Of a stretch of DNA of 64,000 bases, positions 1 through 43,200 are shown piece by piece. The stretch's first letter is position 1; every line of letters starts with the position of its first letter. The stretch is from Torpedo marmorata. Its lineage: Eukaryota. Under the pieces are notes generated by a model. That model did not search any database. It was not told the DNA's origin and saw nothing but the letters and a program-made list of their open reading frames with translations. Location: the NCBI GenBank assembly GCA_977017645.1, contig OZ360244.1, positions 40,362,001 through 40,426,000 on the forward strand, read 5' to 3'. A program made the translations under genes and the position numbers.

Positions 1-1011
1 TGATTGAGAAATTAGGAGAAGATTTGATTGCTCCAAGACATAATGAGTTAGAATTATTAATAACGAAAGCAAATATTAATAAGTTTATTTCTCAAATGTA
101 TAAATTATTTCAGAGAAAAATGCTTAAAGTAGGATTACATAAATCAAGATTAAAATGGGAATTAGATTTAAATATTAATATAGCTGAAAATCATTGGAAA
201 GATTTATGTAAGTTAAGTATGACTAAAGTCATTAATGTTAGATATAGATTAGTACAATATAATTTTTTCCATCAACTATATTTAACACCAAAAAAATTAA
301 AGAAATTTAATCCGACATTGTCGGATCTGTGTTTTAGATGTAAGAATGAAGTAGGTTCTTTTGTTCATTCTACATGGCTATGTCCAAAGATTCAGGATTT
401 TTGGTTGAAAGTTAAGAATTTTTTAGATAGAGTTTTTAACGTTATGTTTCCAATGGACCCTATGTTATTTCTATTTGGAGATATTAGAAAATTTAGTATT
501 AGGAATAGATTGAATATGTATCAGGTAGAATTTTTGCGAATTGCTTTAGCTGTCTCAAAAAAATATATTGCTATTACTTGGAAATCAGATTTAGATTTAA
601 GTTTAGATAGGTGGCATGCAGAACTTCGTTCGTGTATTCCTTTGGAAAAGATTACTTACAACTTACATAATAAATATCATTCTTTTTTAAAAATTTGGAG
701 CCCATATATGAGAATTATGGGTTTAAGGATTTGAAATCTCTAGAAATCAGGTCTATCGGCGAGTTTAACCTCCAGGATAGAATAAGATTTTAGATGGTTC
801 TCTCCTCACTATTAATCTATTAATCTATTTTTCTTTTTCTTTCTTTTTTTTAAACTATTTTTAGAATAGTGGGGTGGGGGGGGGGTTAGGGTGGGGTGGG
901 AGGGTTTGGGGGAGGAAATTTATATCACTTGTATTTTGGAAACTATATATTTTGATTTGTGTATTGTGTGATTTAAAATTTAAATAAAATAATAAAAAAA
1001 AAAAAAAAAAA
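1..1011 (+). mobile_element. L1-clade LINE 3' end, copy 1 of the triplicated insertion (cut by the window start)
   Basis: ORF2 C-terminus with the cysteine-rich CFRC...H...C motif, G-rich 3' UTR and poly(A), followed by the TSD agaaattctgcctgcc at 1012. Confidence 0.93.
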
Positions 1012-1176
1012 AGAAATTCTGCCTGCCCCACAGGAAAAAGAATCTCAGGGTTGTATGTGATGTCATGTATGTACTCTGACAAGAAAGCTGAAATATGAAC
1101 TTTGAACAATTAAACTTTGTGTAGAGATTGCGGAGAAAAAGCTTTGGGTTAACTAAACCTATTTGCATTTGAGCAG

Positions 1177-1290
1177 GGACTGAAACAACCGTTCAGGTGA
1201 CAACAGCGGGAACGACTCCATCAGAAACTTCAACATTAACAAGCACGACAGTTGTTTCCACGTCACCCACCGGAACACCAACCACAGAAG
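1177..1290 (+). CDS. Exon A of unit 1 (phase 1-1): (G)TETTVQVTTAGTTPSETSTLTSTTVVSTSPTGTPTTE
   Basis: gagcAG acceptor at 1175-1176 and GAAG|GTAACG donor at 1291; 2+111+1 = 114 nt; Thr-rich translation. Confidence 0.85.
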
Positions 1291-4200
1291 GTAACGACAA
1301 AGTCAAATATTGATGAAAATTATGATGTGGATGTTGATTTTAAGAAGATGTAACGGAGAAACAGATCAGCTTCAATTGACCGTTTCTTTTACAACCGATC
1401 ACTGGTGATGTGGGGTTGGACGTTGGATGGGGAAGGTAAATCTGACAAGATGCACAAATCTCACTCAAGGGTCCATATTTTTAACAGAAAGCACAACAAG
1501 TGGAGAGGAGTCAACGACGGGATCACCTTCCACTGAGAAACCAACAGTAACGAGCAGTCCGTCTGTATCAAGCCCATTCACAGGATCCTCCTCTTCAGCA
1601 GGTAAATGGAAGAGATCAAAGCCCTTTGCTTAAATTTGTTCCTCAATTACTTCTGCGACAACTGAGAGTGCAGAACAAAACATAGAAGAGACGATTTAAA
1701 AACAAACCGGTCCACTGAAAACGGCGATTGTTAAAGGCTTTGTGCAGCAGTTCGGGCAGAGTTTCAGCATGTAACCCCGATGAGGACCAGAATGTTCAGG
1801 GTGGTCACAGGGATTAACGCGGGGAGCAATTGAAGGTTTACGATACACTTTGTGACAAGTATCAGAAATTTGACATTAACGTGCAGCTTTTCTGTAATTC
1901 TTCAACGATACCTTGACTGTGCCAAATGACGTAATGTCCAGCATTTGCCACATATCAGTTGTTTTGATCGCCTGTTGGCTGTAAAACTAAAGCGGCAGCA
2001 ATTGAAATGCAGCTTTCCACTCCATTTGAAGGAAAGGCAAGATTCGAAGGTCAGATGTCCCATTGTGGCTCCAATCTATGAGTTCCTGAATCGCAGGAGA
2101 AACTGCAGCTTCTGACAATGTGTTTTCCAAATCTGGACTGATTACAATTAGAAAACTTAACGCACTCAACACAAACATTAGAAATTCTGCCAGCCTCAAA
2201 TTACGGAAACCTATTTATTACCAAGAACTTTTTTGAATGCTATTATTACAGTTATACCAAAGAAAGATAGAGATGTATTAAAAACTGAGTCATATAGACC
2301 TATTTCTTTATTGAATATAGATTATAAAATTATGGCAAAAATTTTGGCTAATAGAATAGCTAAATATTTACCAAATTTGATACATCCAGATCAAGCTGGT
2401 TTTATTAAAAATAGATATTCAAAAGATAATAAAGTTAGATTATTAAGTTTAATTAGTTTACATAAAAAGAAACTGGATTTACCATTGGTGGTAACGTTGG
2501 ATGCAGAAAAGGCTTTTGATAGATTAGAATGGAATTTTTTATTTAAGGTGTTAGAGAAATTTGGTTTGGGAATATTTTTATAAATTGGATTAAAACTATA
2601 TATAAGGAATCTACAGCTAAAGTAATTACAAATGGACAAATATCGTCAAAATTTTCTTTAACGCGTTCTACGAGACAGGGATGTCCTCTATCACCAGCTT
2701 TATTTGTTTTGGCAATAGAACCTTTAGCTGAATTGATTAGGATAGATCCTAATATAGTTGGGATTAAAGTTGGTATGGAAGAACATAAGATTAGTTTGTT
2801 TGCAGATGATGTATTAATATATATGACAAAATATATTACATCACTTCAACAATTAGCTATTATATTAACAGAATATGGTGAAATATCTGGGTATAAAATT
2901 AATTCAGATAAAAGTGAAATAATGGCTTTATCTCAAGGTGATTACACTAGGTGTAGAGCAGTTACGGAATTTAAGTGGGAAAAAGAAGGAATTAAATATT
3001 TGGGAGTTAAAGTAGATACAAAATTAGAAAATTTATATAAATTAAATTATATACCTTTATTTAAGAAAATAAAGAAAGATTTGGAAAATTGGAAAGATTT
3101 GCCTATGACTTTAATGGGGAGAGTAAATTGTATTAAGATGAATATTTTTCCAAGAATTCAATATCTTTTTCAATCAATTCCTTTTGGAATTCCAAAATTT
3201 TTTTTTAAAGATTTAAAGTTTATTGTTAGGAAATTTTTATGGAAAGGGAAGTTAGCAAGAGTAAGTATGGATAAGTTAGCATGGAATTATGAGATGGGAG
3301 GATTGCAACTTCCTAATTTTCAATATTATTATAAAGCAGCTCAATTAAAATTTGTAAATGAATTTTTTGATTTAACTAAAACTTCTGCTTGGGTTAATAT
3401 AGAATTAAATAATATAGGAGAAAATTATAAATAGGATATTATTTATAAGTGGAATTCTAAACTACTATTAGTAAAAAAGGAAAATTCACCGATTATTAAA
3501 CATTTGTTGGAAATATGGACACAGGTAGATAAAGAAATAGGTGGGAAAGGATTAATTTCTTTAAATATGCCATTATATCAAAATCCACTTTTATTATTTA
3601 CTATGAATAATCAATTATTGAAAGTATGGTTTCAAAAAGGAATTAAGAATTTTAAAGATTGTTTTGAGGCTGGAAGATTTGTTACGTTTCAAAGATTGAA
3701 GGAAAAATTTAATGTATTAGATAATATATGGTTATCTTATTATCAAGTTAAGACTTTTTTGATTGAGAAATTAGGAGAAGATTTGATTGCTCCAAGACAT
3801 AATGAGTTAGAATTATTAATAACGAAAGCAAATATTAATAAGTTTATTTCTCAAATGTATAAATTATTTCAGAGAAAAATGCTTAAAGTAGGATTACATA
3901 AATCAAGATTAAAATGGGAATTAGATTTAAATATTAATATAGCTGAAAATCATTGGAAAGATTTATGTAAGTTAAGTATGACTAAAGTCATTAATGTTAG
4001 ATATAGATTAGTACAATATAATTTTTTCCATCAACTATATTTAACACCAAAAAAATTAAAGAAATTTAATCCGACATTGTCGGATCTGTGTTTTAGATGT
4101 AAGAATGAAGTAGGTTCTTTTGTTCATTCTACATGGCTATGTCCAAAGATTCAGGATTTTTGGTTGAAAGTTAAGAATTTTTTAGATAGAGTTTTTAACG

Positions 4201-7200
4201 TTATGTTTCCAATGGACCCTATGTTATTTCTATTTGGAGATATTAGAAAATTTAGTATTAGGAATAGATTGAATATGTATCAGGTAGAATTTTTGCGAAT
4301 TGCTTTAGCTGTCTCAAAAAAATATATTGCTATTACTTGGAAATCAGATTTAGATTTAAGTTTAGATAGGTGGCATGCAGAACTTCGTTCGTGTATTCCT
4401 TTGGAAAAGATTACTTACAACTTACATAATAAATATCATTCTTTTTTAAAAATTTGGAGCCCATATATGAGAATTATGGGTTTAAGGATTTGAAATCTCT
4501 AGAAATCAGGTCTATCGGCGAGTTTAACCTCCAGGATAGAATAAGATTTTAGATGGTTCTCTCCTCACTATTAATCTATTAATCTATTTTTCTTTTTCTT
4601 TCTTTTTTTTAAACTATTTTTAGAATAGTGGGGTGGGGGGGGGTTAGGGTGGGGTGGGAGGGTTTGGGGGAGGAAATTTATATCACTTGTATTTTGGAAA
4701 CTATATATTTTGATTTGTGTATTGTGTGATTTAAAATTTAAATAAAATAATAAAAAAAAAAAAAAAAAGAAATTCTGCCTGCCCCACAGGAAAAAGAATC
4801 TCAGGGTTGTATGTGATGTCATGTATGTACTCTGACAAGAAAGCTGAAATATGAACTTTGAACAATTAAACTTTGTGTAGAGATTGCGGAGAAAAAGCTT
4901 TGGGTTAACTAAACCTATTTGCATTTGAGCAGGGACTGAAACAACCGTTCAGGTGACAACAGCGGGAACGACTCCATCAGAAACTTCAACATTAACAAGC
5001 ACGACAGTTGTTTCCACGTCACCCACCGGAACACCAACCACAGAAGGTAACGACAAAGTCAAATATTGATGAAAATTATGATGTGGATGTTGATTTTAAG
5101 AAGATGTAACGGAGAAACAGATCAGCTTCAATTGACCGTTTCTTTTACAACCGATCACTGGTGATGTGGGGTTGGACGTTGGATGGGGAAGGTAAATCTG
5201 ACAAGATGCACAAATCTCACTCAAGGGTCCATATTTTTAACAGAAAGCACAACAAGTGGAGAGGAGTCAACGACGGGATCACCTTCCACTGAGAAACCAA
5301 CAGTAACGAGCAGTCCGTCTGTATCAAGCCCATTCACAGGATCCTCCTCTTCAGCAGGTAAATGGAAGAGATCAAAGCCCTTTGCTTAAATTTGTTCCTC
5401 AATTACTTCTGCGACAACTGAGAGTGCAGAACAAAACATAGAAGAGACGATTTAAAAACAAACCGGTCCACTGAAAACGGCGATTGTTAAAGGCTTTGTG
5501 CAGCAGTTCGGGCAGAGTTTCAGCATGTAACCCCGATGAGGACCAGAATGTTCAGGGTGGTCACAGGGATTAACGCGGGGAGCAATTGAAGGTTTACGAT
5601 ACACTTTGTGACAAGTATCAGAAATTTGACATTAACGTGCAGCTTTTCTGTAATTCTTCAACGATACCTTGACTGTGCCAAATGACGTAATGTCCAGCAT
5701 TTGCCACATATCAGTTGTTTTGATCGCCTGTTGGCTGTAAAACTAAAGCGGCAGCAATTGAAATGCAGCTTTCCACTCCATTTGAAGGAAAGGCAAGATT
5801 CGAAGGTCAGATGTCCCATTGTGGCTCCAATCTATGAGTTCCTGAATCGCAGGAGAAACTGCAGCTTCTGACAATGTGTTTTCCAAATCTGGACTGATTA
5901 CAATTAGAAAACTTAACGCACTCAACACAAACATTAGAAATTCTGCCAGCCTCAAATTACGGAAACCTATTTATTACCAAGAACTTTTTTGAATGCTATT
6001 ATTACAGTTATACCAAAGAAAGATAGAGATGTATTAAAAACTGAGTCATATAGACCTATTTCTTTATTGAATATAGATTATAAAATTATGGCAAAAATTT
6101 TGGCTAATAGAATAGCTAAATATTTACCAAATTTGATACATCCAGATCAAGCTGGTTTTATTAAAAATAGATATTCAAAAGATAATAAAGTTAGATTATT
6201 AAGTTTAATTAGTTTACATAAAAAGAAACTGGATTTACCATTGGTGGTAACGTTGGATGCAGAAAAGGCTTTTGATAGATTAGAATGGAATTTTTTATTT
6301 AAGGTGTTAGAGAAATTTGGTTTGGGAATATTTTTATAAATTGGATTAAAACTATATATAAGGAATCTACAGCTAAAGTAATTACAAATGGACAAATATC
6401 GTCAAAATTTTCTTTAACGCGTTCTACGAGACAGGGATGTCCTCTATCACCAGCTTTATTTGTTTTGGCAATAGAACCTTTAGCTGAATTGATTAGGATA
6501 GATCCTAATATAGTTGGGATTAAAGTTGGTATGGAAGAACATAAGATTAGTTTGTTTGCAGATGATGTATTAATATATATGACAAAATATATTACATCAC
6601 TTCAACAATTAGCTATTATATTAACAGAATATGGTGAAATATCTGGGTATAAAATTAATTCAGATAAAAGTGAAATAATGGCTTTATCTCAAGGTGATTA
6701 CACTAGGTGTAGAGCAGTTACGGAATTTAAGTGGGAAAAAGAAGGAATTAAATATTTGGGAGTTAAAGTAGATACAAAATTAGAAAATTTATATAAATTA
6801 AATTATATACCTTTATTTAAGAAAATAAAGAAAGATTTGGAAAATTGGAAAGATTTGCCTATGACTTTAATGGGGAGAGTAAATTGTATTAAGATGAATA
6901 TTTTTCCAAGAATTCAATATCTTTTTCAATCAATTCCTTTTGGAATTCCAAATTTTTTTTTTAAAGATTTAAAGTTTATTGTTAGGAAATTTTTATGGAA
7001 AGGGAAGTTAGCAAGAGTAAGTATGGATAAGTTAGCATGGAATTATGAGATGGGAGGATTGCAACTTCCTAATTTTCAATATTATTATAAAGCAGCTCAA
7101 TTAAAATTTGTAAATGAATTTTTTGATTTAACTAAAACTTCTGCTTGGGTTAATATAGAATTAAATAATATAGGAGAAAATTATAAATAGGATATTATTT

Positions 7201-10200
7201 ATAAGTGGAATTCTAAACTACTATTAGTAAAAAAGGAAAATTCACCGATTATTAAACATTTGTTGGAAATATGGACACAGGTAGATAAAGAAATAGGTGG
7301 GAAAGGATTAATTTCTTTAAATATGCCATTATATCAAAATCCACTTTTATTATTTACTATGAATAATCAATTATTGAAAGTATGGTTTCAAAAAGGAATT
7401 AAGAATTTTAAAGATTGTTTTGAGGCTGGAAGATTTGTTACGTTTCAAAGATTGAAGGAAAAATTTAATGTATTAGATAATATATGGTTATCTTATTATC
7501 AAGTTAAGACTTTTTTGATTGAGAAATTAGGAGAAGATTTGATTGCTCCAAGACATAATGAGTTAGAATTATTAATAACGAAAGCAAATATTAATAAGTT
7601 TATTTCTCAAATGTATAAATTATTTCAGAGAAAAATGCTTAAAGTAGGATTACATAAATCAAGATTAAAATGGGAATTAGATTTAAATATTAATATAGCT
7701 GAAAATCATTGGAAAGATTTATGTAAGTTAAGTATGACTAAAGTCATTAATGTTAGATATAGATTAGTACAATATAATTTTTTCCATCAACTATATTTAA
7801 CACCAAAAAAATTAAAGAAATTTAATCCGACATTGTCGGATCTGTGTTTTAGATGTAAGAATGAAGTAGGTTCTTTTGTTCATTCTACATGGCTATGTCC
7901 AAAGATTCAGGATTTTTGGTTGAAAGTTAAGAATTTTTTAGATAGAGTTTTTAACGTTATGTTTCCAATGGACCCTATGTTATTTCTATTTGGAGATATT
8001 AGAAAATTTAGTATTAGGAATAGATTGAATATGTATCAGGTAGAATTTTTGCGAATTGCTTTAGCTGTCTCAAAAAAATATATTGCTATTACTTGGAAAT
8101 CAGATTTAGATTTAAGTTTAGATAGGTGGCATGCAGAACTTCGTTCGTGTATTCCTTTGGAAAAGATTACTTACAACTTACATAATAAATATCATTCTTT
8201 TTTAAAAATTTGGAGCCCATATATGAGAATTATGGGTTTAAGGATTTGAAATCTCTAGAAATCAGGTCTATCGGCGAGTTTAACCTCCAGGATAGAATAA
8301 GATTTTAGATGGTTCTCTCCTCACTATTAATCTATTAATCTATTTTTCTTTTTCTTTCTTTTTTTTAAACTATTTTTAGAATAGTGGGGTGGGGGGGGGT
8401 TAGGGTGGGGTGGGAGGGTTTGGGGGAGGAAATTTATATCACTTGTATTTTGGAAACTATATATTTTGATTTGTGTATTGTGTGATTTAAAATTTAAATA
8501 AAATAATAAAAAAAAAAAAAAAAAAAGAAATTCTGCCTGCCCCACAGGAAAAAGAATCTCAGGGTTGTATGTGATGTCATGTATGTACTCTGACAAGAAA
8601 GCTGAAATATGAACTTTGAACAATTAAACTTTGTGTAGAGATTGCGGAGAAAAAGCTTTGGGTTAACTAAACCTATTTGCATTTGAGCAGGGACTGAAAC
8701 AACCGTTCAGGTGACAACAGCGGGAACGACTCCATCAGAAACTTCAACATTAACAAGCACGACAGTTGTTTCCACGTCACCCACCGGAACACCAACCACA
8801 GAAGGTAACGACAAAGTCAAATATTGATGAAAATTATGATGTGGATGTTGATTTTAAGAAGATGTAACGGAGAAACAGATCAGCTTCAATTGACCGTTTC
8901 TTTTACAACCGATCACTGGTGATGTGGGGTTGGACGTTGGATGGGGAAGGTAAATCTGACAAGATGCACAAATCTCACTCAAGGGTCCATATTTTTAACA
9001 GAAAGCACAACAAGTGGAGAGGAGTCAACGACGGGATCACCTTCCACTGAGAAACCAACAGTAACGAGCAGTCCGTCTGTATCAAGCCCATTCACAGGAT
9101 CCTCCTCTTCAGCAGGTAAATGGAAGAGATCAAAGCCCTTTGCTTAAATTTGTTCCTCAATTACTTCTGCGACAACTGAGAGTGCAGAACAAAACATAGA
9201 AGAGACGATTTAAAAACAAACCGGTCCACTGAAAACGGCGATTGTTAAAGGCTTTGTGCAGCATTTAGGGCAGAGGTTCAGCATGTAACCCTGATGAGGA
9301 CCAGAATGTTCGGAGTGGTAACAGGGATTAACGCGGGGAGCAATTGAAGGTTTACGATACACTTTGTGACAAGTATCAGAAATTTGACATTAAAGTGCAG
9401 CTTTTCTATAATTCTTGAACGATACCTTGACTGTACCAAATTACGTAATGTCCAGCATTTGCCACATATCAGTTGTTTTGATCACCTGTTGTGTAAAAAA
9501 CTATAGCGGCAACAATTGAAATATGCCTTTCCACTCCATTGGAAGGAAAGGCAACATTGGAAGGTCAGATGTCCCATTGTGGCTCCAATCTATGAGTTCC
9601 TGAGTCGCAGGAGAAGCTGCAGCTTCTGACAATGTGTTTTCCAAATCTGGACTCTGATTACAATTGGAAAACTTAACGCACTCAACACTAACATTAGAAA
9701 TTCTGCCAGCCCCGCAGGAAAAAGAATCTCAGGGTTGTATGTGATATCATGTATGTACTCTAACAATAAATCTGAATTATGAATTTTGAACAATTTAAAG
9801 TTTGTGCAGAGATTGCAGAGAAAAAGCTTTGAGTTAACAAAACCTACCGGTATTTGTGATTGAACAGGGTCTGAAACAACTATTCAGGAGACAACAGAGG
9901 GAACGTCATCATTAGAAACTTCAACATTAACAAGCACGACAGTTGTTTCCACTTCACTCACCGGAACACCAACCACAGAAGGTAACGAGAAAGTCAAATA
10001 TTGATGAAATTCAGGGCGTGGATGTTGATTTTAAGGAGATGTAACGGACAAACAGATCAGCTTCAATTGACCGTTTCTTTTACAACCGATCACTGGTGCT
10101 GTGGGGTTAAACATTGGATGGGGAAGGTTTATCTGACATGATACACAAATCTCACTCAAGGATTCATATTTTTAACAGAAAGCACAACAAGTGGAGAGCA

Positions 10201-22200: not shown

Positions 22201-25200
22201 ACATCACTTCCCAACTCCTATATTCTATGCAATGATTGATAAAGGCCAGCATACTAAAAGCCTTCTTCACCACCCTATTCACATGAGTTTCTACCTTCAG
22301 GGAACGATGCACCATTACTCCTAAATCTTTCTGCTCTTCTGTATTCATCAATGCTCTCCCATTTACTACGTATGTCCTGTTCTGATTCTTCTTACCAAAA
22401 TGAAGCACCTCACACTTATCAGCATTAAACTCCATTTGCCATTTTTCAGCCCACTTTTCTAAGCAGCCCAAATCCCTCTGCAATCCTTGAAAACCTTCTT
22501 CATTATCCACTATTCCACCTATCTTAGTATCGTCTGCATATTTACTAATCCAGTTCACCACCCCATCATCTAGATCATTAATGTATATAACGAACAACAA
22601 TGGGCCCAATACAGATCCCTGAGGCACACCGCTGGTCACCGGCCTCCAACCTGACAGACAATTATCCACTACCACTCTCTGGCCTCTCCCTTTCAGCCAA
22701 TGTTCAATCCATTTGACTATCTCAAAATTTATACCTAAAGACTGCACCTTCCTAACTAACCTTCCATGTGGTACCTTATCGAAGGCCTTACTGAAGTCCA
22801 TATAGACAACATCCACCGCGCTACCCTCATCCACATTCCTAGTCACCTCTTCAAAAAATTCAATCAGATTGGTCAAACAGGACCTTCCGCTCACAAATCC
22901 GTGTTGAGTGTTCCTGATCAGACCCTGTCTATCCAGATATTTATAAGTACTATTACGGTGACTTCGATCCACCAATAGTCACCTGGAGGCTAAGTGTGGT
23001 CCTTTTCTTTGACGCGTTTTAATCAATTTACCAACAAAGTCCAAAATGTTCAAAAACCTTTATTTACATTTGACTTGCAGTAATCTTCAAGTGACTTTAA
23101 TATAAACAGTTCTTGAAATGATGTAAAACAATGTAAAACGATCTAAAACGATGTAAAACGTCTAAAACGGTCAATAAAGATGTGGAGACCTCACTCACCC
23201 TCCTAACATCTCATTCCTTTCTTTTTCTAGAAGCTTCGCACCTCCTCCGTCGCTCCTAAACCCCCTGCGCACCCTCCACCGCGCATACTACATTTCCCAG
23301 ACTCCCACGCGCACCATGACGTCACTCCACACTGCGCATGCACCCGTCGGCACTCCAGCGCATGCGCAGAGCACAGAACGGGCCGATGACGGCCCTGGCT
23401 GACAACGCGAGCGCTCCAGAAGCTGACGAGGCGCCGGAGCGCCGCAGCAAGGTAAGTTAAATGAGCCTACGGCTCTTACACCGGCCCCTAATTATTATAA
23501 TTAGAAGCAATGTCTTTAATAATAATTACACTATAAAATTATAATAACAATAACCGTAACATTCAACAATACAAATCTTCTTTCTTCCTTCTTCATAAAT
23601 CTAGAGTTTACCATTACTCTGATTCAACAAAAGTCTGTAAATAACAACAAATAAAGTCAGTTTACATTTATCAAAGTTCCTCTTTTGTCAACAAAAGACA
23701 GACCTTGTTAATAGGTCTGTTTAGAAAACCAGTCTTAGCTTTAATTCGCACTTGACGCACAAGTCCTCTTTTGTCTTGAAAAGTCTCAATAATTTTTCCA
23801 AGTAACCAGGAGTTTCCCGAAGTTGAACCATCCATAATAATCACAATGCCTCTTTAAAGTTCTTTTATCTCTATAATCTTTGAGTTAAAACGTCAACCAG
23901 TAAACTTCAAATCTTCCTCAGATAAAATAGATACAGTTTTTCTTTTGAATTTAACACAAGGCACTTCTTCGACATGTCGTTTCACTTTATTTCTTTTTTC
24001 AGTATTCCACTTCTCATGTGAAGAATTTAAACTCCTAGAACTAGAATTTGAATATTTATTTGATCCTTTCGATTTTAAACAGGTCTGTTTAACCACTCTG
24101 GTTTCTATGGCTCTTTCCTGCAATTCTAAATCCAATTTTGCAACTTTCAATTCGGTCTCAGTTCTTTCCGAGAAATTAATAATTTGATCTGAAGTCAAAA
24201 TATCATGTGATACGTTGATATTTCCATTGTCAATCCTGTTGCGACAAACTTGAAATTTTTTAATTTCTTTATCTTGTTTGTTACATTTCTGCAATGCAAT
24301 ATCACATTCTTTCTGTATTGTTAATTGTTTTGTGTTATTAACCAATAACTTGTTCTCTTTCAAAACATTAATCTCTTCCTCCAACCTTTTACATTTTGAT
24401 AATGCTGAATCTCTTTCCTCAATAACTGTATTCATCTCTTCAGCAGTTATTCTTTTCTTCCGCTTTCTGACTTTGCGAGTTTTACTTACAATTAAATCTT
24501 TCTGTTTACTGTTTTCTTGATTATCTAATATTTCCAATTCCCCTTTCAACATTTTGTTCTCTGAATTCAATTGCATTAGATTATCATTCACATTATTCTT
24601 TATTCCATCAGCACAATTTTCTGTGTTTTCCAGTTTTACATCACATTGTAATCTTTCTTCATTAGCTTTGTCTGTTGTAATTTCTGAACTACAAAATCTA
24701 CATTCAGATTTGTTTTCAGTCACTTGTTTTATTCCTGTATTTGATTCAATTACACATGAATGATCAATAGTATTATTTGCAACATCTTCTAATACTTCAC
24801 TTTAATCCATTTCTGACGAAATTAATTCCTTCAATGTTGTTTTAAATACTAAAAATACGGCTTGGATTAATATAGAATTGAGTAATATAGGAGAAAGAAA
24901 TAAGGAAGATATTATTTATAAATGGAATTCTAAATTATTATTGATTAAAAAGAAAAAGTCACCGATTATTAAACATCTATTGGAAATTTGGAATCAATTA
25001 GATAATGAAATAGGACGAAAAGGATTAATTTCTTTAAATATACCATTATATCAGAATTTATTATTACCATTTTCTATTGATAATCAATTTTTAAAATTAT
25101 GGTATCAAAAAGGAATTAAGAAGATTAAAGATTGTTTTGAGGCAGGAAGATTTGTTACTTTTTCTAGATTGAAAGAAAAATTTGGAATAATGGATAATAC

Positions 25201-28200
25201 AGTTTTGGCTTATTATCAAGTTAAAGGATTTTTAGTTGAGAAATTAGGGAATCAATTAATATCCCCTAGACAAGATGGGTTAGAGTTATTAATTACTAAT
25301 GGAAATGTTAACAAATTTATATCGCAAATGTATAAACTACTTCAGAAAAAAATGTTTAAAGTAGGACTACATAAATCTAGATTAAATTGGGAATCAGATC
25401 TAAACACTAGTATAGATGAACAACACTGGAAAGAATTATGTAAACTGAGTATGACTAAGATTATTAATGTTAGATATAGATTAGTACAATATAATTTTTT
25501 TCATCAATTATATATAACACCTAAAAAATTAAAGAAATTCAATTCGGCATTGTCAGATATGTGTTTTAGATGTAAAGATGAAATAGGTTCTTTTGTACAT
25601 TGTACATGGTCGTGTTTGAAAATTAAAAATTTTTGGTCTAAAGTTAAGGAATTTTTAGATAGAATTCTTAATATTACGATTCCAATGGACCCTATGATAT
25701 TTCTGTTTGGAGATATTAAAAAAATCAGTATTAGAAATAGATTGAATATGTACCAAATAGAATTTTTACGAATTGTGTTAGCAATTTCAAAAAAATGTAT
25801 TGCTATTACTTGGAAATCAGATTTAGATTTAAATTTGGATAGATTACATGCAGAGTTACGCTCGTGTATACCATTGGAAAAAATTACGTATAATTTACGA
25901 GACAAATATCATTTCTTTCTGAAAATTTGGAGCCCATATATGAGAATTATGGGTATGAATTAATTCTCTAGAAGTTAGTACCGCTGACAAAGTAACCTCC
26001 AATATATAAGTAGAGTTAGCTTGAAATAGTTTTTTCTCCTCATACTAACACTAATTTTCTTTCTTAACTTTATTATTCAACCTTTTTCTTTCCTTTTAAT
26101 TAACATTTTTATATTCTATTTTCTTTTTTATTAGATAGCGTGGGAGGGTTGGGGAGGGGAGGGTGGGAAGGGGGGGTAGTAAATATATCACATGTATTTT
26201 CAATAATATATTATTTTCTTGATATATGTATTTTGTGATTTTAAAAAATTAAATAAAATTATAAAAAAAAAAATAAAAAAAAAATGTTGTTTTAAATACC
26301 ATTGATTTATTTTCATATTGATCTGTTTTCTTTTCTTCAAAAGTGATTTTCTTATTCACGGTTTTTTGCTCTTCGCTTAACTTTTCAACTTTCTCAACCG
26401 AAATTCTATTAATATTTATCGCTAACTGTTCCTGAGCAATATCATTATTTCTTTCCAGTGGTCCATTGATTGTCCAACCAAGCATGGTTTTAACAGCATA
26501 AGGTCCATTCCTTTTACTCTCTATTACTTCTTTTGGTACCAAAACCTTTGGCACATCTGAACCAATCAGCATTTCTATTTCAGAATTAATTTCAGGTAAA
26601 TAAACCTTCCACAGATAAGCTAAATGATGGATATCCCTTTGATGAGGAATATTTCCTTCATTCACAGGCATAGTCTTCTGAGTATATACACTTGGAAGAT
26701 CACAAAATTTTTTGTCATCCAATCCAGCAACCTCTAAGCCTGAAACAATGTTAGTTTCAACAACCTTTTCTTGTCCCATGGTTTTTAACATAATTCTTGA
26801 TCTTTTTCCTTGAATATTAAGTTTATTCATTAGTCCTTCTGTGCAAAAAGATGCAGTGCTGCCTGGGTCTAAAAATGCATATGTTTTTACTATTGCATCC
26901 CCTTTCTTGGCCTTGACTTGTACAGGCACTATCGAAAGTTTGTAGTTGTTCACACCGGCCCCAGTAAGACCACTTGTCTGAACCGAGGTTATAACATTAT
27001 TTTCTGTTGTTTCCTTTGTTTCTGTTTGCTCCTTTTCCAATTCCTTGTTTCTGTTATGGATATGCAAAATTCTAGGATGTTTCAAATTGCATATGTTACA
27101 ATTAATTCGCTTCTCGCAGTTTTTACTGATGTGCCCTTTACACAGACAGCTAAAACATATTCCATTTTCCTTTAAGAAAGTGATCTTTTCCTTTTGTTCC
27201 TTCTTTTCCAATCGTAAACACATTTCCAAAGCATGTCCACCTTTACAGAACAAACAACTCTTTTCATTAGGCAAACTTTCCTTTTCCTTATTTACTTTGT
27301 CCTTTTCTTTACTTATCACTTGCACATTAGTAGCAAAAGTACTCCTTTTTACTTTCGGACTAGACTGTGTGTTAAACTTCCTTACATCTTTGCCCATCGA
27401 ATTATCTCTGGTATTTCCATACAGTGGATCTGTTTCAACGTACACCCGTCATTCAAGAAAATTTACCAAATCCTTTAAGGTAATTTTTCAACCGTAATCT
27501 ACTTGTAAATCACAAGCCAAATCTCTCCATCTATCCCATAACTTGTAAGGTAATTTTTCTAAGATGATTCGCATATTACTATGCACTTCAAGCTCACGAA
27601 TATTATCGATTTCTTCCATAGCATTACAACATCCTCTTAAAAACAAAGTATATTCTTGCAGAGCCTTTACATCATTTTGTTTTATTGATGTCCATTTAAG
27701 AGCTTTATCCATATAAGCTAAAGCAATTCGATGTTTGTTGCCAAAATATTGTTCCAGTAAAGCCTAAGCTTTGTCTAATCCTCTTTCTGAAGACATTTGT
27801 TTACAACTCTTTACCAGTTCTTTTGGATGTCCCTTTGTGAACATTTCCAAATAATAAAGACATTCATCACGATCTTGGCATTTATCTTCAATATTGCGTT
27901 TAAAAGATCTCATAAATGATTGATATTGAAGTGGATCACCATCAAAAGTTTGTATCTCTTTCTTGGGTAAAGAAGAGAGAGACTGTAACTGAAACAATGA
28001 TGCAGCAATTTCATTTTGTCTTTCCTTGGATGACAATACATTGCTCTGTTCACTGTCTCTTGTTGCATGCAATGTATCTGGAAACCTCACTGGTGTAGTT
28101 TCTTCCATATTTCTGATGCTTGACTCAAATAACAAAGAAGCTGCTTCGTTCGACCGAACCCAAGCCGCAGCTTTGCTTTCAGATGTTACCGTTGGTACAT

Positions 28201-31200
28201 GTGACTCGATATCAATATGCTCTTGAAAGGTTTGTCCTTCTATTTGAAAATCTTGTATCCTTGATTCTAAAATATCTATCCTTTTGGTTGGTTTCTTTTC
28301 CTGTGACTCTTTTTTAAAATATGACCTTTTATTATCAGACATTTTAGATAATTTACTTCGAGCGCCAGATACTATTGAGCCTTCTATTGCTTTCTTTTTT
28401 GCCTGGGCAATAACAATATTTGCTTCTATCTCCTGCTGTTCTTTTCTCTGCCTTAGCTGCTCCTGCATTTGTCTTAGCTGCTCCTCCTGTCGTTCTAAAA
28501 TATGTTTATCCTTAAGCGTTTTTTGTTGTGCAAAAAGAGCGGCCAAGTCCACTTCAATCTTTGTACGTGACGATGCAGAAATTGAAGTACGAGAAACTCT
28601 GGAGCTCGTACCAGAACTTCTTTTGCTTCTCCTGCTTTCAGCAATTGAGACACTGTCACTTGCTTGTATTTCATCCTGCAGTTCATATGTTGTCTTCATA
28701 CTTACCTCTTTATCCAATTTGAATTGTATATCCTTTGCATCTTCAACCACTTTAATTTCTTCATCATTTGTTGACACAATTTCAGCCATTTCCAAGTTAT
28801 CTTCTTGTTCATTTAATGAAGCTGCCTCTTCATCCTTTGCCTGCTTCAATCTTTCGATAAGAACCCTTTTATTTCCTCTTATGTCCTTTTTCAGTCGCTT
28901 CAATTCTTCTTTAATATCCGCAACCTTCATGTCTTCAATACGTTGGTCCTCAACAGCAACATCAGCGGTTGCTGCATCAGCTGCTGATATATCAGTAGCT
29001 GCTGTATCAGTGGCTGCTGCGGCCATTTTACTCGTCTTGTTCCTCTTTCCTTCAATCATACACAATACCAGCCAAACAACAGTCCCCAATGGACCAGCGG
29101 CAGCAATTCCAATCTGTGTTCTTACTTGCTAAAGATACACAGAAGGAGTCCACAGACTTATGCCAACCACTTCAAATGACTGTAATGTGCTGCAATCCAC
29201 AAACGAGTTTCAACCACAACATCCGTCACTAATATCACTGATTTTCCAGAAAATGGTTTCTCCAACGTATTTATAGGACACTTTACTATAAGATTTGAAG
29301 CTTTAAATCCCTCTCTGGCTGTTATTCATGGCAGATGGATGTCGATTACAAAATGCCCCCAACTCGAGGCATCTCCAAGATGGCCGCCATATTATTTTAA
29401 ATATCAGTCCAAAGCACAGAGAGTTTTTTTTATCTTCTTTCCTTCGTTTTTTCTGTTCCAAAAACAGCCAGCTCTTTATTGACTAGATTACGGTGACTTC
29501 GATCCACCAATAGTCACCTGGAGGCTAAGTGTGGTCCTTGTCTTTGACGCGTTTTAATCAATTTACCAACAAAGTCCAAAATGTTCAAAAACCTTTATTT
29601 ACATTTGACTTGCAGTAATCTTCAAGTGACTTTAATATAAACAGTTCTTGAAATGATGTAAAACAATGTAAAACGATCTAAAAAGATGTAAAACGTCTAA
29701 AACGGTCAATAAAGATGTGGAGACCTCACTCACCCTCCTAACATCTCATTCCTTTCTTTTTCTAGAAGCTTTGCGCCTCCTCCGTCGCTCCTAAACCCCC
29801 TGCGCACCCTCCACCGCACATACTACATTTCCCAGACTCCCACGCGCACCATGACGTCACTCCACACTGCGCATGCGCCCGTCGGCACTCCAGCGCATGC
29901 GCAGAGCACAGAACGGGCCGACGACGGCCCTGGCTGACAACGTGAGCGCTCCAGAAGCCGACGAGGCGCCGGAGCGCCGCAGCAAGGTAAGTTAAATGAG
30001 CCTACGGCTCTTACAAGTACTATCTCTAAGAACTTTCTCCATTAATTTACCTACCACAGACGTCAAACTTACAGGCCGATAATTGCCAGGCTTCCTCCTT
30101 GAACCCTTTTTAAATAACGGAACCACATGCGCAATACGCCAATCCTCCGGCACTATCCCCATCTCTAATGACATTTGGAAAATCACCGTCAGAGCCTCTG
30201 CTATTTCCTCCCTTATTTCTCTCAAGGTCCTGGGGAAGATCCCGTCGGGTCCCGGAGACTTAACCACCTTTATATGCCTCAAAAGCCCTAACACTACATC
30301 TTTCGTAATCACTATATTCTCCATATTTACCCAATATGCTTTTTTTTATCTCGCATACCCAATATCCTTCTCCTTGGTGAATACCGAAGAAAAGACACTG
30401 TTCAATATCTCCCCCATTTCTCTAGGCTCCACACACAGTTTTCCGCTCTGATTCTCTAAGGGACCAATTTTGTCCCCCGCTTTCCTTTTACCATTAACAT
30501 ATTTGTAGAAACCTTTTGGATTAATTTTCACCCTGCTTGCGATAGTCTCCTCGTACCTTCTTTTAGCTTTCCTAATTCCTCTCTTAAGATTCCTTTTACA
30601 TTCAATGTATTTTTCAAACATATCCTTAATTCCATGCTTCTTATACTTAATGTACGCCTCCCTTTTTTTTCGAACCAAGTTTCCAATATTTCTCGAAAAC
30701 CACGGCTCTCTCAAACCTTTTGCCCCTCTTTTAACCTAACAGGAACATAAAGCTTTTGCACTCTCAAAATCTGATCTTTAAAACGTGCAGCTTTTCCATA
30801 ATTCTTGAACGAATCCTTGTCTTTGCCAAATGACGTAATGTCCAGCATTTGCCACAAATTAGCTGTTTTGATCGCCTGTTGGATATAAAACTAAAGCGGC
30901 AGCAATTGAAATGCAGCTTTCCACTCCATTTGAAGGAAAAAGGCAAGATTCGAAGGTCAGATGTCCCATTGTGGCACCAATCTATGAGTTCCTGAATTGC
31001 AGGAGAAGCTGCAGCTTCTGACAATGTGTTTTCCAAATCTGGACTCTGATTACAATTGGAAAACTTAACGCACTCAACACAAACATTAGAAATTCTGCCT
31101 GCCCCGCAGGAAAAAGAATCTCAGGGTTGTATGTGATGTCGTGTATGTACTTTGACAATAAAGCTGAAATATGAACTTTGAACAATTTAAAGTTTGTGCA

Positions 31201-37200: not shown

Positions 37201-40200
37201 TCACTGGAACACCAACCACAGAAGGTAACGAGAAAGTCAAATATTGATGAAATTCAGGGCGTGGATGTTGATTTTAAGGAGATGTAACGGAGAACCAGAT
37301 CAGCTTCAATTGACCGTTTCTTTTACAACCGATCACTGGTGCTGTGGGGTTAAACGTTGGATGGGGAAGGGAAATCTGACAAGATGCACAAATCTCACTC
37401 AAGGATTCATATTTTTAACAGAAAACACAACAAGAGGAGAGCAGTCAACGACGGGATCACCTTCCACTGAGAAACCAACAGCAACGAGCAGTCCGTTTGT
37501 TTCAAACTCAATCACAGGATCCTCCTCTTCAGCAGGTAAATGGAAGAGATCAAAGCCCTTTCCCCAAATTTGTACCTCAATTACCTTTGCGAGAATTGAG
37601 AGTGCAGAACAAAACATAGAAGAGACGATTTAAAAACAAACCGGTCCACAGAAAACGGCAATTGTTAAAGGCTTTGTGCAGCAGTGAGGGCAGAGTTTCA
37701 GCATGTCATCCCGATGAGGACCAGAATGTTCAGGGTGGTCACAGGGATTAACGCGGGGAACAATTGAAGGTTTACGATACACTTTGTGACAAGTATCAGA
37801 AATCTGACATGGACGTGCAGCTTTTCTGTAATTCTTGAACGATACCTTGTCTTTGCCAAATGACGTAATGTGCAGCATTTGCCACAAATTAGTTGTTTTG
37901 ATCGCCTGTTGGCTATGAAACTATAGAGGTGTGGTAAACCACTGTTTAGTATTGTGTCATAGGTATGTCCTGCAGGCTGTCCCGAGGTCTACTCCCCCCC
38001 CTCCCTTGGGTGTCCAGGTAATCCCTCCCCTTTCCTCACCTGAATAAAGGCCACTGTGCCACGGTCACTCCCTCAGTCCGGGATCAGATCTGCAGGAAAC
38101 TACTGCTCTGTTTTAAGGTCATAAAAGCCTATGGTTCGTTCACACTCATAGTCTTTGAGTACTTATTGATAGGCCTATCAATTTTATTACCTTAATAAAA
38201 ATCTGATGGAAGGAGCTCTAAGACCGGATCGTCTGGACATCGATCATCTAGCTCCTGATGCTAGTAACTCTTTTGAACACTGGCTACGCTGTCTAGAGTC
38301 CTTCATGATCACCATCCAAGCAGAAAGCGAGGAGCAGCAACTAAGAGTCCTCGTGTCCAGGGTGAGCTCTCGGTTATTCTCAACGGTGAGAGACTGTAGA
38401 ACCTATACGGAGGCGATGGATGCGCTGAAAAGAATCTACCTGACGCCTGTCAACGCGATCTACGCGAGGTACAGACTCTTTTCGCGAAAGCAGCGAGCCG
38501 GGGAGTCGACCGTGGAGTATGTCAAGGACATACAGTCGCTTGCACGAGCATGCGACTGTAAAGCCCTAACGGCCGAGGAGCACGTTGGAGTGTTGGAGAG
38601 AGACGCTTTCATCATGGGGATCAGGTCGGTTTACGTGCGTGCGCCAGAGGCTGCTGGAGCACGCCGACCTGGACTTTCGTGCGGCGGTATCAATGGTCCA
38701 CACGCTGGAGTCCACGCTGCGGAACTCCGACGCCATGCAGGCGCGCGACCCCCAGCCCGCAGCGTGGTCAGCCCCATCCCCCAGCCCTGCCAACGAACTG
38801 ACTGCCGCCGCCATTTGTAGCGATCCGATCGCTACCGCGATCCTCACCGCCGCTGCCGTTAACCGCGAGCCCGAGAAGTGTTACTTCTGCGGGCTCGATA
38901 AACACCAGAGGAAACGCTGCCCGGCCCGCGACGCGACTTGTTCCAGCTGCGGCAAGAAAGGCCATTACGCGAAGGCCTGCCGCTCCAAGTCGCGCTCGGG
39001 TCCGAGCAGCGCCGCGTGCGAGCTGCGGGAGTGGCCATCTTTGATGCTGGCACTTCCGGCGGCGACCTCGTGCGAAGCGTGGAGGCGGCCATCTTTGATG
39101 CTGGCTCTTCCGGCGCCACCATCTAGTAGGCCCACGTCTGTACTTCCGGCATTACTACCGCCGCCATCTTACAGCGCGAGCAGCAGCGACACGTGCGATC
39201 CACGGGAGCGGCCATCTTTAACAATGGCAGAAGATCAAGATGACTACATCCCAACCCTTGCATTGGTCACCCTTGACCAGAGTGTTCCCCACCAGTTATC
39301 GCGATCCATGATGGACATCCTGGTGGAGGGGCACAAAACCACCTGTCTCTTCGATACGGGCAGTACGGAGAGCTTCATCCACCCGGACACCGTCCAGCGC
39401 TGTGGCCTCACTACCATACCGGTAAGCCAGAGGGTGGCCATGGCGTCTGGGTCACACACAACAGACATCCGGGGGGCTTGTGTGGCAAATATCGTGGTAC
39501 AAGGGACTGAGTATCGCCAATTTTCTCTGTTTATTATGAATCGTTTGTGTGCACCAGTGTTATTAGGTCTTGATTTTCAGAGCCACTTACGGAGTGTCAC
39601 GATGCGGTATGACGGTCCCCACCCTGCGATCACTGTAGCAAACCACCAGTTCCTGAACAACACGCCCCAGACTACCTGTGGCCTCTCCACTCTTAAGATC
39701 TCGCCCCCGTCGCTATTCGCCAACCTGACCCCTGACTGTAAGCCTGTGGCAACCAAGAGCAGGCGATACAGTGCGGGGGACAGGGCGTTTATCAAGACGG
39801 AGGTGCAGAGATTATTACAGGAGGGGATTATTGAGAGGAGTAATAGTCCCTGGAGGGCCCAGGTAGTCGTAGTGAAAGGGGCCAAGAGTAGGATGGTGGT
39901 TGATTACAGTCAGACGATTAATCGATTCACACAGTTGGACGCATATCCGCTACCACGAATAGCGGATATAGTAAATCAGATTGCCCAATATAGGTTCTTT
40001 TCCACCATAGACCTGAAATCCGCGTATCACCAGCTCCCTATCCGAAGGGAGGACCGACCATACACTGCGTTCGAGGCAGATGGTAGGCTGTTCCATTTCC
40101 TGCGGGTTCCGTTCGGGGTTACTAATGGTGTATCGGTTTTTCAGCGGGAGATGGACAGGATTGTGGACCATTATAAACTTAAGGCCACTTTCCCGTACCT

Positions 40201-43200
40201 GGATGATATTACCATCTGTGGTCTTGATCGTCAGGACCACGACAACAACCTCCGGAGGTTCCTGCAGGCGGCCAAAGCACTAAACCTAACATACAATAAA
40301 GAAAAATGTGTGTTCGGTACCACTCGCCTCGCTATTTTGGGGTACGTGGTAGAGAACGGGGTGATTGGACCCGACCCCGACCACATGCGGCCCCTGCTGG
40401 AACTTCCACTTCCCTCCACACCCAAAGCACTCAAACGATGCCTCGGGTTTTTTTCTTATTATGCACAGTGGGTTCCAAATTATGCTGATAAGGCCCGCCC
40501 CCTGGTGAAATCCACCGTTTTTCCCCTTGCTTCGGAGGCATGTAAGGCGTTTGAACTTATAAAAGGGGACATTGCGCGAGCAACAATGCACGCGGTGGAT
40601 GAAGAGACACCTTTTCAGGTAGAGAGCGACGCATCGGACTTCGCGCTGGCTGCTACCCTCAACCAGGCGGGAAGGCCGGTGGCGTTTTTCTCACGGACCC
40701 TCCAAGGCCCCGAAATTCGGCACTCCGCGGTGGAGAAGGAAGCCCAGGCCATAGTGGAAGCAATCAGGCACTGGAGGCACTATCTCGCCGGCAAGCATTT
40801 TACCCTGCTGACCGACCAACGCTCGGTGGCATTTATGTTCAACAATCAGCAGCGGGGTAAGATCAAAAACGACAAGATCATGAGGTGGAGAATAGAACTC
40901 TCCACCTACAATTACGACATCCTTTCCCGGCCTGGGAAGCTCAATGAGCCCTCCGACGCTCTATCCCGGGGATCATGCGCCAGCGCGCAGATCAACCGAT
41001 TACATGCCCTACACGACGTCCTCTGCCACCCAGGAATTACCAGGCTCTTTCACTTTGTGAAGTCACAGAACCTGCCATACTCCCTGGAAGAGGTCAGGAC
41101 AATGATCAGCAGTTGCCGGGTTTGCGCGGAGTGCAAACCCCAGTTCTACCGCCCCGACAAGGCACAGCTGATCAAAGCCACCCGCCCTTTTGAACGTCTC
41201 AGTATTGACTTCAAGGGGCCCCTTCCCTCCACGAACCGCAACGTGTACTTCTTGAATATTATTGATGAGTACTCACGGTTCCCCTTTGCCATCCCCTGCC
41301 CCGACACTTTGGCTACCTCAACCATAAAAGCTCTCCACCAGGTATTTACGCTGTTTGGCTTCCCAAACTATATACATAGCGACCGGGGAGCAGCTTTTAT
41401 GAGTGAGGAGCTGCGACGGTACCTGCAGGCCCGAGGCATCGCCACTAGCAGGACCACCGGATACAATCCCCGGGGAAATGGACAGGTGGAAAGGGAGAAC
41501 GCTACTGTCTGGAAGGCGGCGCTCCTGGCTCTCAAGTCCAGGGGATGGCCGGTCTCCCGCTGGCAGGATGTCCTCCCCGAAGCCCTCCACTCTATCCGGT
41601 CCCTGCTGTGCACATCCACAAACGCTACCCCCCATGAACGATTTTTTTCCTTCCCCAGGAAGTCGACCACCGGAACTGCCCTACCTGCCTGGCTGACGTC
41701 CCCGGGACCGGTGCTGCTCCGCAATCACCTTCGGAGCAGCAAATATGAGCCGACAGTCCAGAGGGTGCAGTTGGCGTACGCCAACCCACAATATGCATAC
41801 GTGGTCTTCCCGGATGGGCGAGAGGACACTGTCTCGATTCGTGATCTGGCGCCCGCTGGGGCACCGGAAGAAAATCCCGACGGGCGAGACCACCTGCTGC
41901 AACCCCTTCCTAATCCCCCGCCCAGTGCGTCAGACCCAGCCCCCTCGCCGGGACAACAGACACTCCAAGAAGCCAGGCAGGAGGCGACTGCACAGACAAC
42001 CCTACCATCTCCCCCATCACCACAACCCGCCCCGCCACTACGCAGGTCACAGCGGCAAATTCGACCGCCGGATCGCCTTGACCTGTGAAAGTGCATGTAT
42101 ATATATATATTTCTGTATGATAGTCACTGTATGTTTTTCTGTAACATAGTTAGAGTGGTCCCGTCACCCCGCTGGACTCTTTTTTAAAAAGGAGGGGTGA
42201 ATGTGGTAAACCACTGTTTAGTATTGTGGTATAGGTATGTCCTGCAGGCTGTCCCGAAGTCTACTCCCCCCCCTCCCTTGGGTGTCCAGGTAATCCCTCC
42301 CCTTTCCTCACCTGAATAAAGGCCACTGTGCCACGGTCACTCCCTCAGTCCGGGATCAGATCTGCAGGAAACTACTGCTCTGTTTTAAGGTAATAAAAGC
42401 CTATGGTTCGTTCACACTCATAGTCTTTGAGTACTTATTGATAGGCCTATCAAGAGGTAGCAATTGAAATGCACCTTTCAACTCCATTTGAAGGAAAGGC
42501 AAGATTCGAAGGTCAGATGTCCCATTGTGGCACCAATCTATGAGTTCCTGAATCGCAGGAGAAGCTGCAGCTTCTGACAAAGTGTTTTCCAAATCTGGAC
42601 ACTGATTACAATTGGAAAACTTAACGCACTCAACACAAACATTAGAAATTCTGCCTGCCCCGCAGGAAAAAGAATTTCAGGATTGTATGTGATGTCGTGT
42701 ATGTACTCTGACAATAAAGCTGAAATATGAACTTTGAACAATTTAAAGTTTGTGCAGAGAATGCGGAGAAAAAGCTTTGGGTTAACAAATCCTATTTGCA
42801 TTTGAACAGGGTCGGAAACAACCGTTCAGGTGACAACAGTGGGAACGACCCCATCAGAAACTTCAACATTAACAAGTACGACAGTTGTTTCCACTTCACT
42901 CACTGGAACACCAACCACAGAAGGTAACGAGAAAGTCAAATATTGATGAAATTCAGGGCGTGGATGTTGATTTTAAGGAGATGTAACGGAGAACCAGATC
43001 AGCTTCAATTGACCGTTTCTTTTACAACCGATCACTGGTGCTGTGGGGTTGGACGTTGGATGTGGAAGTTAATCTGACAAGATGCACAAATCTCACTCAA
43101 GGATTCATATTTTTAACAGAAAGCACAACAAGAGGAGAGCAGTCAACGACGGGATCACCTTCCACTGAGAAACCAAGAGCAACGAGCAGTCCGTCTGTTT

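Follow-up and report, generated by a model that had tools for sequence, protein, structure and literature searches.

What has taken the place of pol in a minus-strand BEL/Pao LTR retrotransposon that spans positions 22951-30015 of the window (the whole 64,000-nucleotide stretch of Torpedo marmorata DNA analysed here), and does the substitution belong to one dead copy or to a family? An earlier note on this DNA had read the whole of 23893..24849 as a MIPOL1-like host fragment captured in frame into such an element. The BEL/Pao affiliation was borne out, as paired LTRs, the GTACT duplication, a SAP domain and a DUF5641 piece were all recovered. Read along its own strand, the element consists of the following parts:

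30016..30020, minus strand: target-site duplication GTACT, 5' side, repeated at 22946-22950 and located inside a CR1-type LINE that continues beyond the element
29486..30015, minus strand: 5' LTR of 530 bp, starting with TG and carrying AATAAA near its end
28838..28939, minus strand: SAP domain (PF02037, E 2e-7) near the polyprotein start
26390..28800, minus strand: Gag with three zinc knuckles and aspartic protease, with a D-P-G-S motif as in relatives and no frameshift
23671..23850, minus strand: BEL C-terminal remnant, the second half of DUF5641 (PF18701, E 1.5e-10), 74% identical to P0244, in the same frame behind two stops
22951..23480, minus strand: 3' LTR, with a short purine-rich stretch just before it and GTACT after it (22946-22950)

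The two LTRs are 98.3% identical (520/529), and seven of the nine differences are CpG transitions. Because the LTRs are near-identical, differ mostly by such transitions and have GTACT on both flanks, the insertion of the element appears young. Both LTRs begin with TG; in the present copy, no CA was found at their ends. The first 250 bases of the LTR (23230-23480 and the corresponding bases of the 5' LTR) resemble a CpG island with 63% GC and 26 CpG, and this CpG-rich first half contains the motifs GCGCATGCGC and TGACGTCA, which we take to be NRF1 and CRE sites.

The surroundings consist of nested repeats. Positions 1012-64000 of the window are mostly occupied by a tandem repeat of about 1.17 kb with units about 90-93% alike, and an Rfam search, this repeat included, returned 0 matches. 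Insertions are nested in the order array, L1/Tx1-type LINE, CR1, BEL and LINE, each hosting the next; the LINE hosting the BEL insertion is presumably a CR1, judging from its RT motifs. Within positions 1-9711, a 3.76-kb unit composed of the repeat and a LINE fragment stands in tandem with 99.4% identity, either because it was duplicated very recently or because the assembly is at fault. The satellite array also contains a young-looking Gypsy-type element (38173-42088, plus strand, 55% GC) with a gag-like ORF and an open frame of 1172 codons with matches to protease, RT, RNase H and integrase.

Gag with its three knuckles, the protease and the DUF5641 C-terminus are all encoded in one frame, whose first ATG is located at 29026. 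The Gag-protease region shares 49% identity over 888 columns with the full-length BEL polyprotein P0244 and 62% with P0121, while matches to DUF1759 and DUF1758 were weak (E 0.04-0.05). The polyprotein N-terminus opens with an Ala-rich run behind the AAAATGGCC start. The SAP-bearing N-terminus (28838-29026, minus strand) stands where the nearest relatives have their usual Gag start, and no SAP domain was found in the nearest BEL relatives among the stored ones compared. For the SAP region, the Atlas search gave no match and the PDB search yielded a generic SAP match only (MKL1, E 4e-4); a likeness to SAFB/SLTM is our assumption. This N-terminus may represent a third host capture, in addition to the two described below.

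The claim that neither RT, RNase H nor integrase follows the protease was upheld by a profile built from 30 related pol regions (1177 positions), which was compared with the six frames outside the LINE that interrupts the cargo. Matches were limited to profile positions 1 to about 35, corresponding to the protease end, and 1119-1175. Profile positions from about 35 to 1118 remained unmatched in all six of these frames, and RT, RNase H and integrase were not found there. The element is non-autonomous, its pol having been replaced and not interrupted. The frame order is Gag-protease, BRCA1, MIPOL1 452-553, MIPOL1 295-~373, 62 codons and BEL tail, and the features between protease and tail are:

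26294..26386, minus strand: BRCA1-derived stretch, the first of two (skate BRCA1 196-221), joined in frame to the end of the protease
24850..26282, plus strand: 5'-truncated LINE 3' fragment of 1.43 kb, antisense to the element and specific to this copy
24496..24849, minus strand: second BRCA1-derived stretch (skate BRCA1 233-354), with a stop at 24802-24804
24238..24498, minus strand: MIPOL1 3' piece (Narcine X2 452-553), ending at a phase-2 exon end
24238..24240, minus strand: MIPOL1 junction codon (query codon 188), on which the end of one exon and the start of an earlier one both fall
24082..24240, minus strand: MIPOL1 5' piece (Narcine 295-~373), in which 27 codons spanning an exon joint are missing
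23893..24081, minus strand: 62 open codons, then a stop, between the MIPOL1 5' piece and the BEL tail

Judged by these alignments, two genes of the host, BRCA1 and MIPOL1, almost certainly contributed to the cargo. The MIPOL1 assignment of the whole of 23893..24849 has to be narrowed accordingly: MIPOL1 covers 24082-24498 only, whereas 24496-24849 (and 26309-26386) align with BRCA1. The first BRCA1 stretch is identical to skate BRCA1 196-221 at 16 of 26 residues (at 26309-26386), with a score of 80 against a shuffle maximum of 51. The second is identical at 59 of 112 residues and scores 241, while the best of 500 shuffles reached 74 and the best other stored protein 66. Among the 29 matches of the exhaustive protein search, a single one, skate BRCA1, aligned to query residues 2-100 (E 3e-10); the BRCA1 identification rests on this one database protein, which the word-based search had missed. 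The captured BRCA1 region lies between RING and BRCT and includes neither domain. An alignment of MIPOL1 398-450 to query 46-101 was dropped, as this stretch scored at chance against MIPOL1 and at a z of 22 against BRCA1.

The MIPOL1 resemblance, which the earlier note had proposed, proved specific. The best match of this part of the cargo was MIPOL1 of Narcine bancroftii (E 9.6e-23), the local score was 269 against a shuffle maximum of 64, and the 5' piece by itself scored 112 against a maximum of 55. In the near-length protein search all 86 matches carried PF27918 and PF27921, and nearly all named ones were MIPOL1. Generic coiled-coil similarity was ruled out by the shuffle controls and by a PDB search that gave only weak matches to vimentin and S4 (E 0.03 or more). 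The identity of the segment stands, but it consists of two pieces in reversed order. The last 62 cargo codons had no match to BRCA1, MIPOL1 or P0244, and their Atlas matches, at 0.82 or lower, were at chance level. Their interpretation as BEL integrase was rejected, as a weak likeness over 20 residues was not supported by the pol profile.

The present copy is damaged. Its LINE at 24850-26282, presumably of the L1/Tx1 type, is flanked by a 17-bp duplication (24833-24849 and 26283-26299), and BRCA1 matches are found on both sides of the insertion. Four in-frame stops are located at 27764, 27488 and 27449 in the Gag-protease region and at 24802 (24802-24804) in the BRCA1 stretch, and two further stops at 23893 and 23854 precede the BEL tail. 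As it reads, this copy cannot make a Gag-PR-host fusion protein because of the LINE and the stops. The earlier note, which mentioned neither the LINE insertion, the stops, BRCA1 nor the reversed MIPOL1 order, had described a frame running on from the protease; in the present copy, with its LINE and stops, it does not. The BEL C-terminal motif does resume in the same frame after the coiled-coil part, as claimed, but the two stops at 23893 and 23854 intervene.

The origin of the MIPOL1 cargo was assessed at exon limits deduced from protein isoforms, not from genomic DNA. One exon joint is marked by the frog model P0096, in which a repeated unit ends just before CKxLE, and the element is gapless through that point. 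This model, of Discoglossus pictus MIPOL1, includes several tandem copies of a single unit the size of an exon. The 3' piece crosses one exon joint intact and has a 15-codon gap over the next joint; this gap and the 27-codon gap of the 5' piece each remove another exon joint. The MIPOL1 cargo crosses an isoform-inferred joint without an intron and, with high confidence, would derive from spliced RNA. The intronless joint and the young LTRs support the proposal that a host mRNA fragment was captured into a non-autonomous LTR element.

The MIPOL1 pieces adjoin each other directly, and the best crossover between their two ungapped diagonals falls at 186-188. The phase-2 exon end at 553/554 is fixed by S/R isoforms. 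A phase-2 exon start is placed at Narcine 295: the Narcine isoforms show a one-residue difference at this position, and a skate protein continues there into intron sequence. Both exon limits fall on one codon, an outcome with a rough chance of 0.001 for free template switches. At the switch points residues are shared at the protein level. Taking the protein isoforms as basis, the junction is classified as back-splice-type, in which an exon end is joined to an earlier exon start, and the MIPOL1 template therefore was probably a circular RNA. A junction of this type is what defines copies derived from circular RNAs (PMC4897178). The term circMIPOL1 was not found in the literature searched.

In a tree with host MIPOL1 proteins, from which Amia was left out, the MIPOL1 cargo was sister to Narcine (UFBoot 97). 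It was identical to Narcine at 77 of 113 residues and to the next ray at 71 of 114, and a one-residue gap common to the cargo and Narcine was absent in the 13 others of the 14 hosts compared. These comparisons assign the donor to a Narcine-lineage MIPOL1 gene. The grouping with Narcine together with the shared gap places the capture after the split of the electric rays from the other sampled rays. The protein branch length of the MIPOL1 cargo was 0.37 versus 0.016 for Narcine, about 20 times as long, and constraint at the level of MIPOL1 therefore appears to have been lost. A single-sequence structure model of low confidence (mean pLDDT 56 overall) predicted long helices for the MIPOL1 core (residues 120-191, pLDDT 69-89).

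The occurrence of the chimera beyond this copy was studied in public sequencing runs. Of the 12 listed runs, 11 have sequence words in common with the stretch, and these carry 10 organism labels; none of the listed runs sharing words is recorded as RNA. Contigs of four of the 12 runs (X1, X2, X4 and X6) were aligned to the stretch, X1 comprising 270,371 contigs. In X1, the summed depth was 2.4-4.0 million in the cargo bins and 2.0-4.1 million in gag-protease; summed contig depth is not copy number, and the eight listed X1 pieces have depths of 11-86. Each of six listed cargo or tail sites was covered by 96-121 X1 contigs (counter maximum 128), and three X1 joints skip the LINE (24850-26282). 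A 930-nt contig of X2 runs from the end of the protease into the cargo, joining 26294 to 24843 in frame; it is LINE-free and has 22 differences (about 2%) and no gaps. The depth of X2 and X4 was low and flat, possibly reflecting single copies or trace DNA. Run X6, whose RNA status is a guess, covers the LINE as well as the element. None of the listed contigs spans the whole element or represents a second full-length copy, and none placed the element at a second insertion site. Further copies were absent from the protein searches, the metagenome candidates (0/143) and the viral candidates (0/65), and no chimeric protein turned up in the near-length, word-based or exhaustive protein searches. 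Some X1 contigs represent internally deleted derivatives: one (depth 255) skips 780 nt of cargo (23684-24465), another skips 24052-24814.

The segment is not unique to the present copy, as the cargo is as deep as gag in X1 and LINE-free copies exist. Very probably, the chimera belongs to a multi-copy family. Since LINE-free copies occur and the cargo depth equals that of gag, the chimera looks like the main form of this family, and from the depth, after allowing for contig overlap, we infer thousands of copies. Mobilisation in trans, as suggested earlier, fits an element with no pol of its own, young LTRs and a target duplication.

The 1227 codons of the frame contain four stops and no frameshift, versus 27-95 stops per stretch in the other frames. 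In six-frame searches, BRCA1 and MIPOL1 matches to the cargo fall in the polyprotein frame only. The junctions and internal gaps, about seven in all, are without exception frame-preserving, for which we estimate a chance of roughly 1 in 2000, the back-splice not being counted. The 12 best-supported of 66 indels all lie outside 23896-24849 and 26300-29026, a distribution to be read with the homopolymers that bias indels in the non-coding parts. Two X4 contigs have gap totals of 24 and 21 within the frame. Counter-signs are two X1 pieces with gap totals of 11 and 1 in the frame and several X1 skips, each seen in one contig, whose lengths are not divisible by three. The four stops compare with 1.3 expected from the LTR divergence and 3.0 expected at a divergence of about 2%, and the stop positions are absent among the 40 variants listed of 727. 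Selection is quite likely to have kept the reading frame open. The cargo protein itself evolved fast and probably serves as filler, given the branch of 0.37 versus 0.016 and a BRCA1 piece without RING or BRCT.

A scenario that would account for the element starts from a non-autonomous BEL/Pao family of a Narcine-lineage torpediniform ray. Within the particle, reverse transcriptase would switch from the element RNA, just past the protease, onto co-packaged host RNAs and return to the element RNA near its 3' end, in one round or in several, much as template switching and renewed mobilisation are described by Tan et al. (PMC5131818). A BRCA1 piece and a MIPOL1 piece would thereby replace RT-RNase H-integrase. 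The MIPOL1 circle would be entered in a late exon and read over the back-splice into earlier exons, so that one capture of a circular RNA suffices for the reversed order. The chimera would retain LTRs, Gag and protease, and obtain RT and integrase from an autonomous BEL helper; no such helper was found, the nearest full-length relative being only 49% identical. The frame would be selected for reasons acting in cis, namely supply of the element's own Gag-protease and a late stop that spares the RNA from nonsense-mediated decay. The cargo would drift as filler cut off by the protease, and the present copy would have received its LINE and stops later. Taken as a whole, this sequence of template switching, helper-driven spread, cis-selected frame and filler cargo is reasonably probable.

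The same capture may have produced a cargo protein that serves the element in assembly, nuclear tethering or the recruitment of helper RT and integrase and that drove its spread. A frame kept across about seven events, the long helices predicted with low confidence for residues 120-191 of the MIPOL1 core and the depth of the chimera, equal to that of gag in X1, are in line with such a role. We nonetheless regard it as unlikely, because the protein branch is about 20 times that of the host, deletions of 15 and 27 codons have shortened the coils, neither RING nor BRCT is present in the BRCA1 piece, and cis selection by itself accounts for the open frame. The reversed MIPOL1 order could likewise have arisen without a circle: the enzyme may have switched twice, independently, onto linear mRNA, or the template may have been a linear transcript whose exons were repeated by tandem duplication or trans-splicing. 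Tan et al. document repeated template switching, also for a Pao element, and switch points near exon junctions in one Gypsy family (PMC5131818). Dong et al. name other origins of non-colinear junctions (PMC4897178). A linear RNA with repeated exons would yield an identical junction, and the frog model P0096 has tandemly repeated exons. Two independent switches would have to place both breakpoints on exon limits, phase-matched, on one codon and without a gap (rough chance 0.001), and we consider the non-circular routes together improbable.

Far less credible is a one-off dead chimera, in which processed pseudogene pieces inserted in or recombined with one old BEL copy that did not spread. It would suit the broken state of the present copy and the lack of other copies in the protein, metagenome and viral collections; against it, pol is replaced and not interrupted, the cargo ends carry neither poly(A) nor a duplication, and the LTRs are far younger than the divergence of the cargo from its donors. 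A single copy is also hard to reconcile with joints that skip the LINE, with a contig that lacks it and differs by about 2%, and with the roughly 100 contigs over each listed cargo site. A domesticated host gene, i.e. a fixed Gag-PR-BRCA1-MIPOL1 fusion, would explain the long frame and the word-sharing runs under 10 organism labels. It is scarcely conceivable given the young LTRs, a site within nested repeats, the stops and the LINE, the many variants and the fast protein evolution; a single fixed copy with a conserved protein is not the pattern seen. The capture with filler cargo is the reading we prefer over these. The boldest reading, that pol was swapped for a BRCA1 fragment and a circular MIPOL1 RNA (SAP perhaps being a third host gene) in thousands of copies whose hybrid polyprotein is still made, and that host-derived coils or host-like RNA aid spread or silencing evasion, is unlikely. 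If true, it would describe a selfish, high-copy, exon-shuffled gene, whose anatomy would be direct evidence that circular RNAs are reverse-transcribed in LTR particles.

The kind of element is already known, with LTR-mediated retrocopies, maize Bs1 and the mouse circRFWD2 copies as precedents. In a literature search by titles, excluding supplements and most subscription papers, no report of a BRCA1 and MIPOL1 combination was found, nor, within the same scope, of an abundant family whose LTR polyprotein contains, in frame, a back-splice junction next to part of another gene; closer cases may be listed in Supplemental Table 8 of Tan et al. or Table S1 of Dong et al. Dong et al. leave the route of circular RNA retrotransposition open and note only nearby LTRs (PMC4897178). 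In the ray, the back-splice-type junction lies between paired LTRs flanked by a target duplication. This position points to template switching inside LTR particles, and the junction would date a back-splice of MIPOL1 to the lineage of the electric rays. The LTR chimeras of several genes considered here for comparison have few copies, while the ray chimera appears abundant; comparisons of its copies can therefore test directly whether captured host coding sequence persists because of its protein or solely because the frame has to stay open. Read mapping, gene models and small-RNA analysis in these rays could be misled by the numerous diverged fragments of BRCA1 and MIPOL1.

The autonomous fish BEL/Pao elements (P0244, P0122 and the cichlid P0124) resemble the ray element in Gag, knuckles and protease (49-62%) and in the C-terminus (74%), and differ in carrying RT, Peptidase_A17 and integrase. 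Neither the MIPOL1 nor the SAP Pfam accessions occur in the 120 BEL relatives listed of 154. The Oreochromis BEL polyprotein model P0149 contains a DnaJ domain (PF00226) where pol should be, possibly another capture or a gene-model fusion. Replication-defective transducing retroviruses offer a parallel from another lineage: in the avian E26 Gag-Myb-Ets, two host genes replace pol in frame with gag, and a helper is needed. The ray element differs in having no env and no sign of an oncogenic function, and in being a germ-line retrotransposon family.

Maize Bs1 is also an LTR element in which the pol region was replaced by several host-gene pieces forming one hybrid ORF (PMC13317346). It differs in its plant host, in a copy number of 1-5, in having one of its three pieces out of frame and in its demonstrated transcription and translation. 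The mouse circRFWD2 pseudogenes share the reversed-order exon junction; 33 high-confidence copies are reported, with LTR sequence enriched in their flanks (PMC4897178). Their mechanism is left open and the accessible text describes no in-frame fusion to an element polyprotein (PMC4897178), while the ray junction is enclosed by paired LTRs and a target duplication and has a fragment of another gene next to it.

A close likeness is found in the LTR-mediated retrocopies described by Tan et al. (2016; PMC5131818), whose main text contains neither 'circ' nor 'non-colinear'. Examples are the Drosophila CG4799_CG11924_r in the Pao element BATUMI, a mosquito retrocopy in BEL18_AG and a mouse four-gene 'Super' retrocopy. 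As in the ray, internal ORFs were replaced by partial host RNA, two parental genes contributed, the carrier was BEL/Pao, and both LTRs were kept (PMC5131818). The retrocopies went through further rounds as non-autonomous elements (PMC5131818), which the depth, the variant contigs and the LINE-free joints make probable for the ray element as well. Those cases are young, with one or few insertion sites in the ones described (PMC5131818). The ray element is unlike them in its diverged cargo, in the in-frame position of this cargo behind Gag-protease, in its apparent status as the main form and in its non-colinear exon junction.
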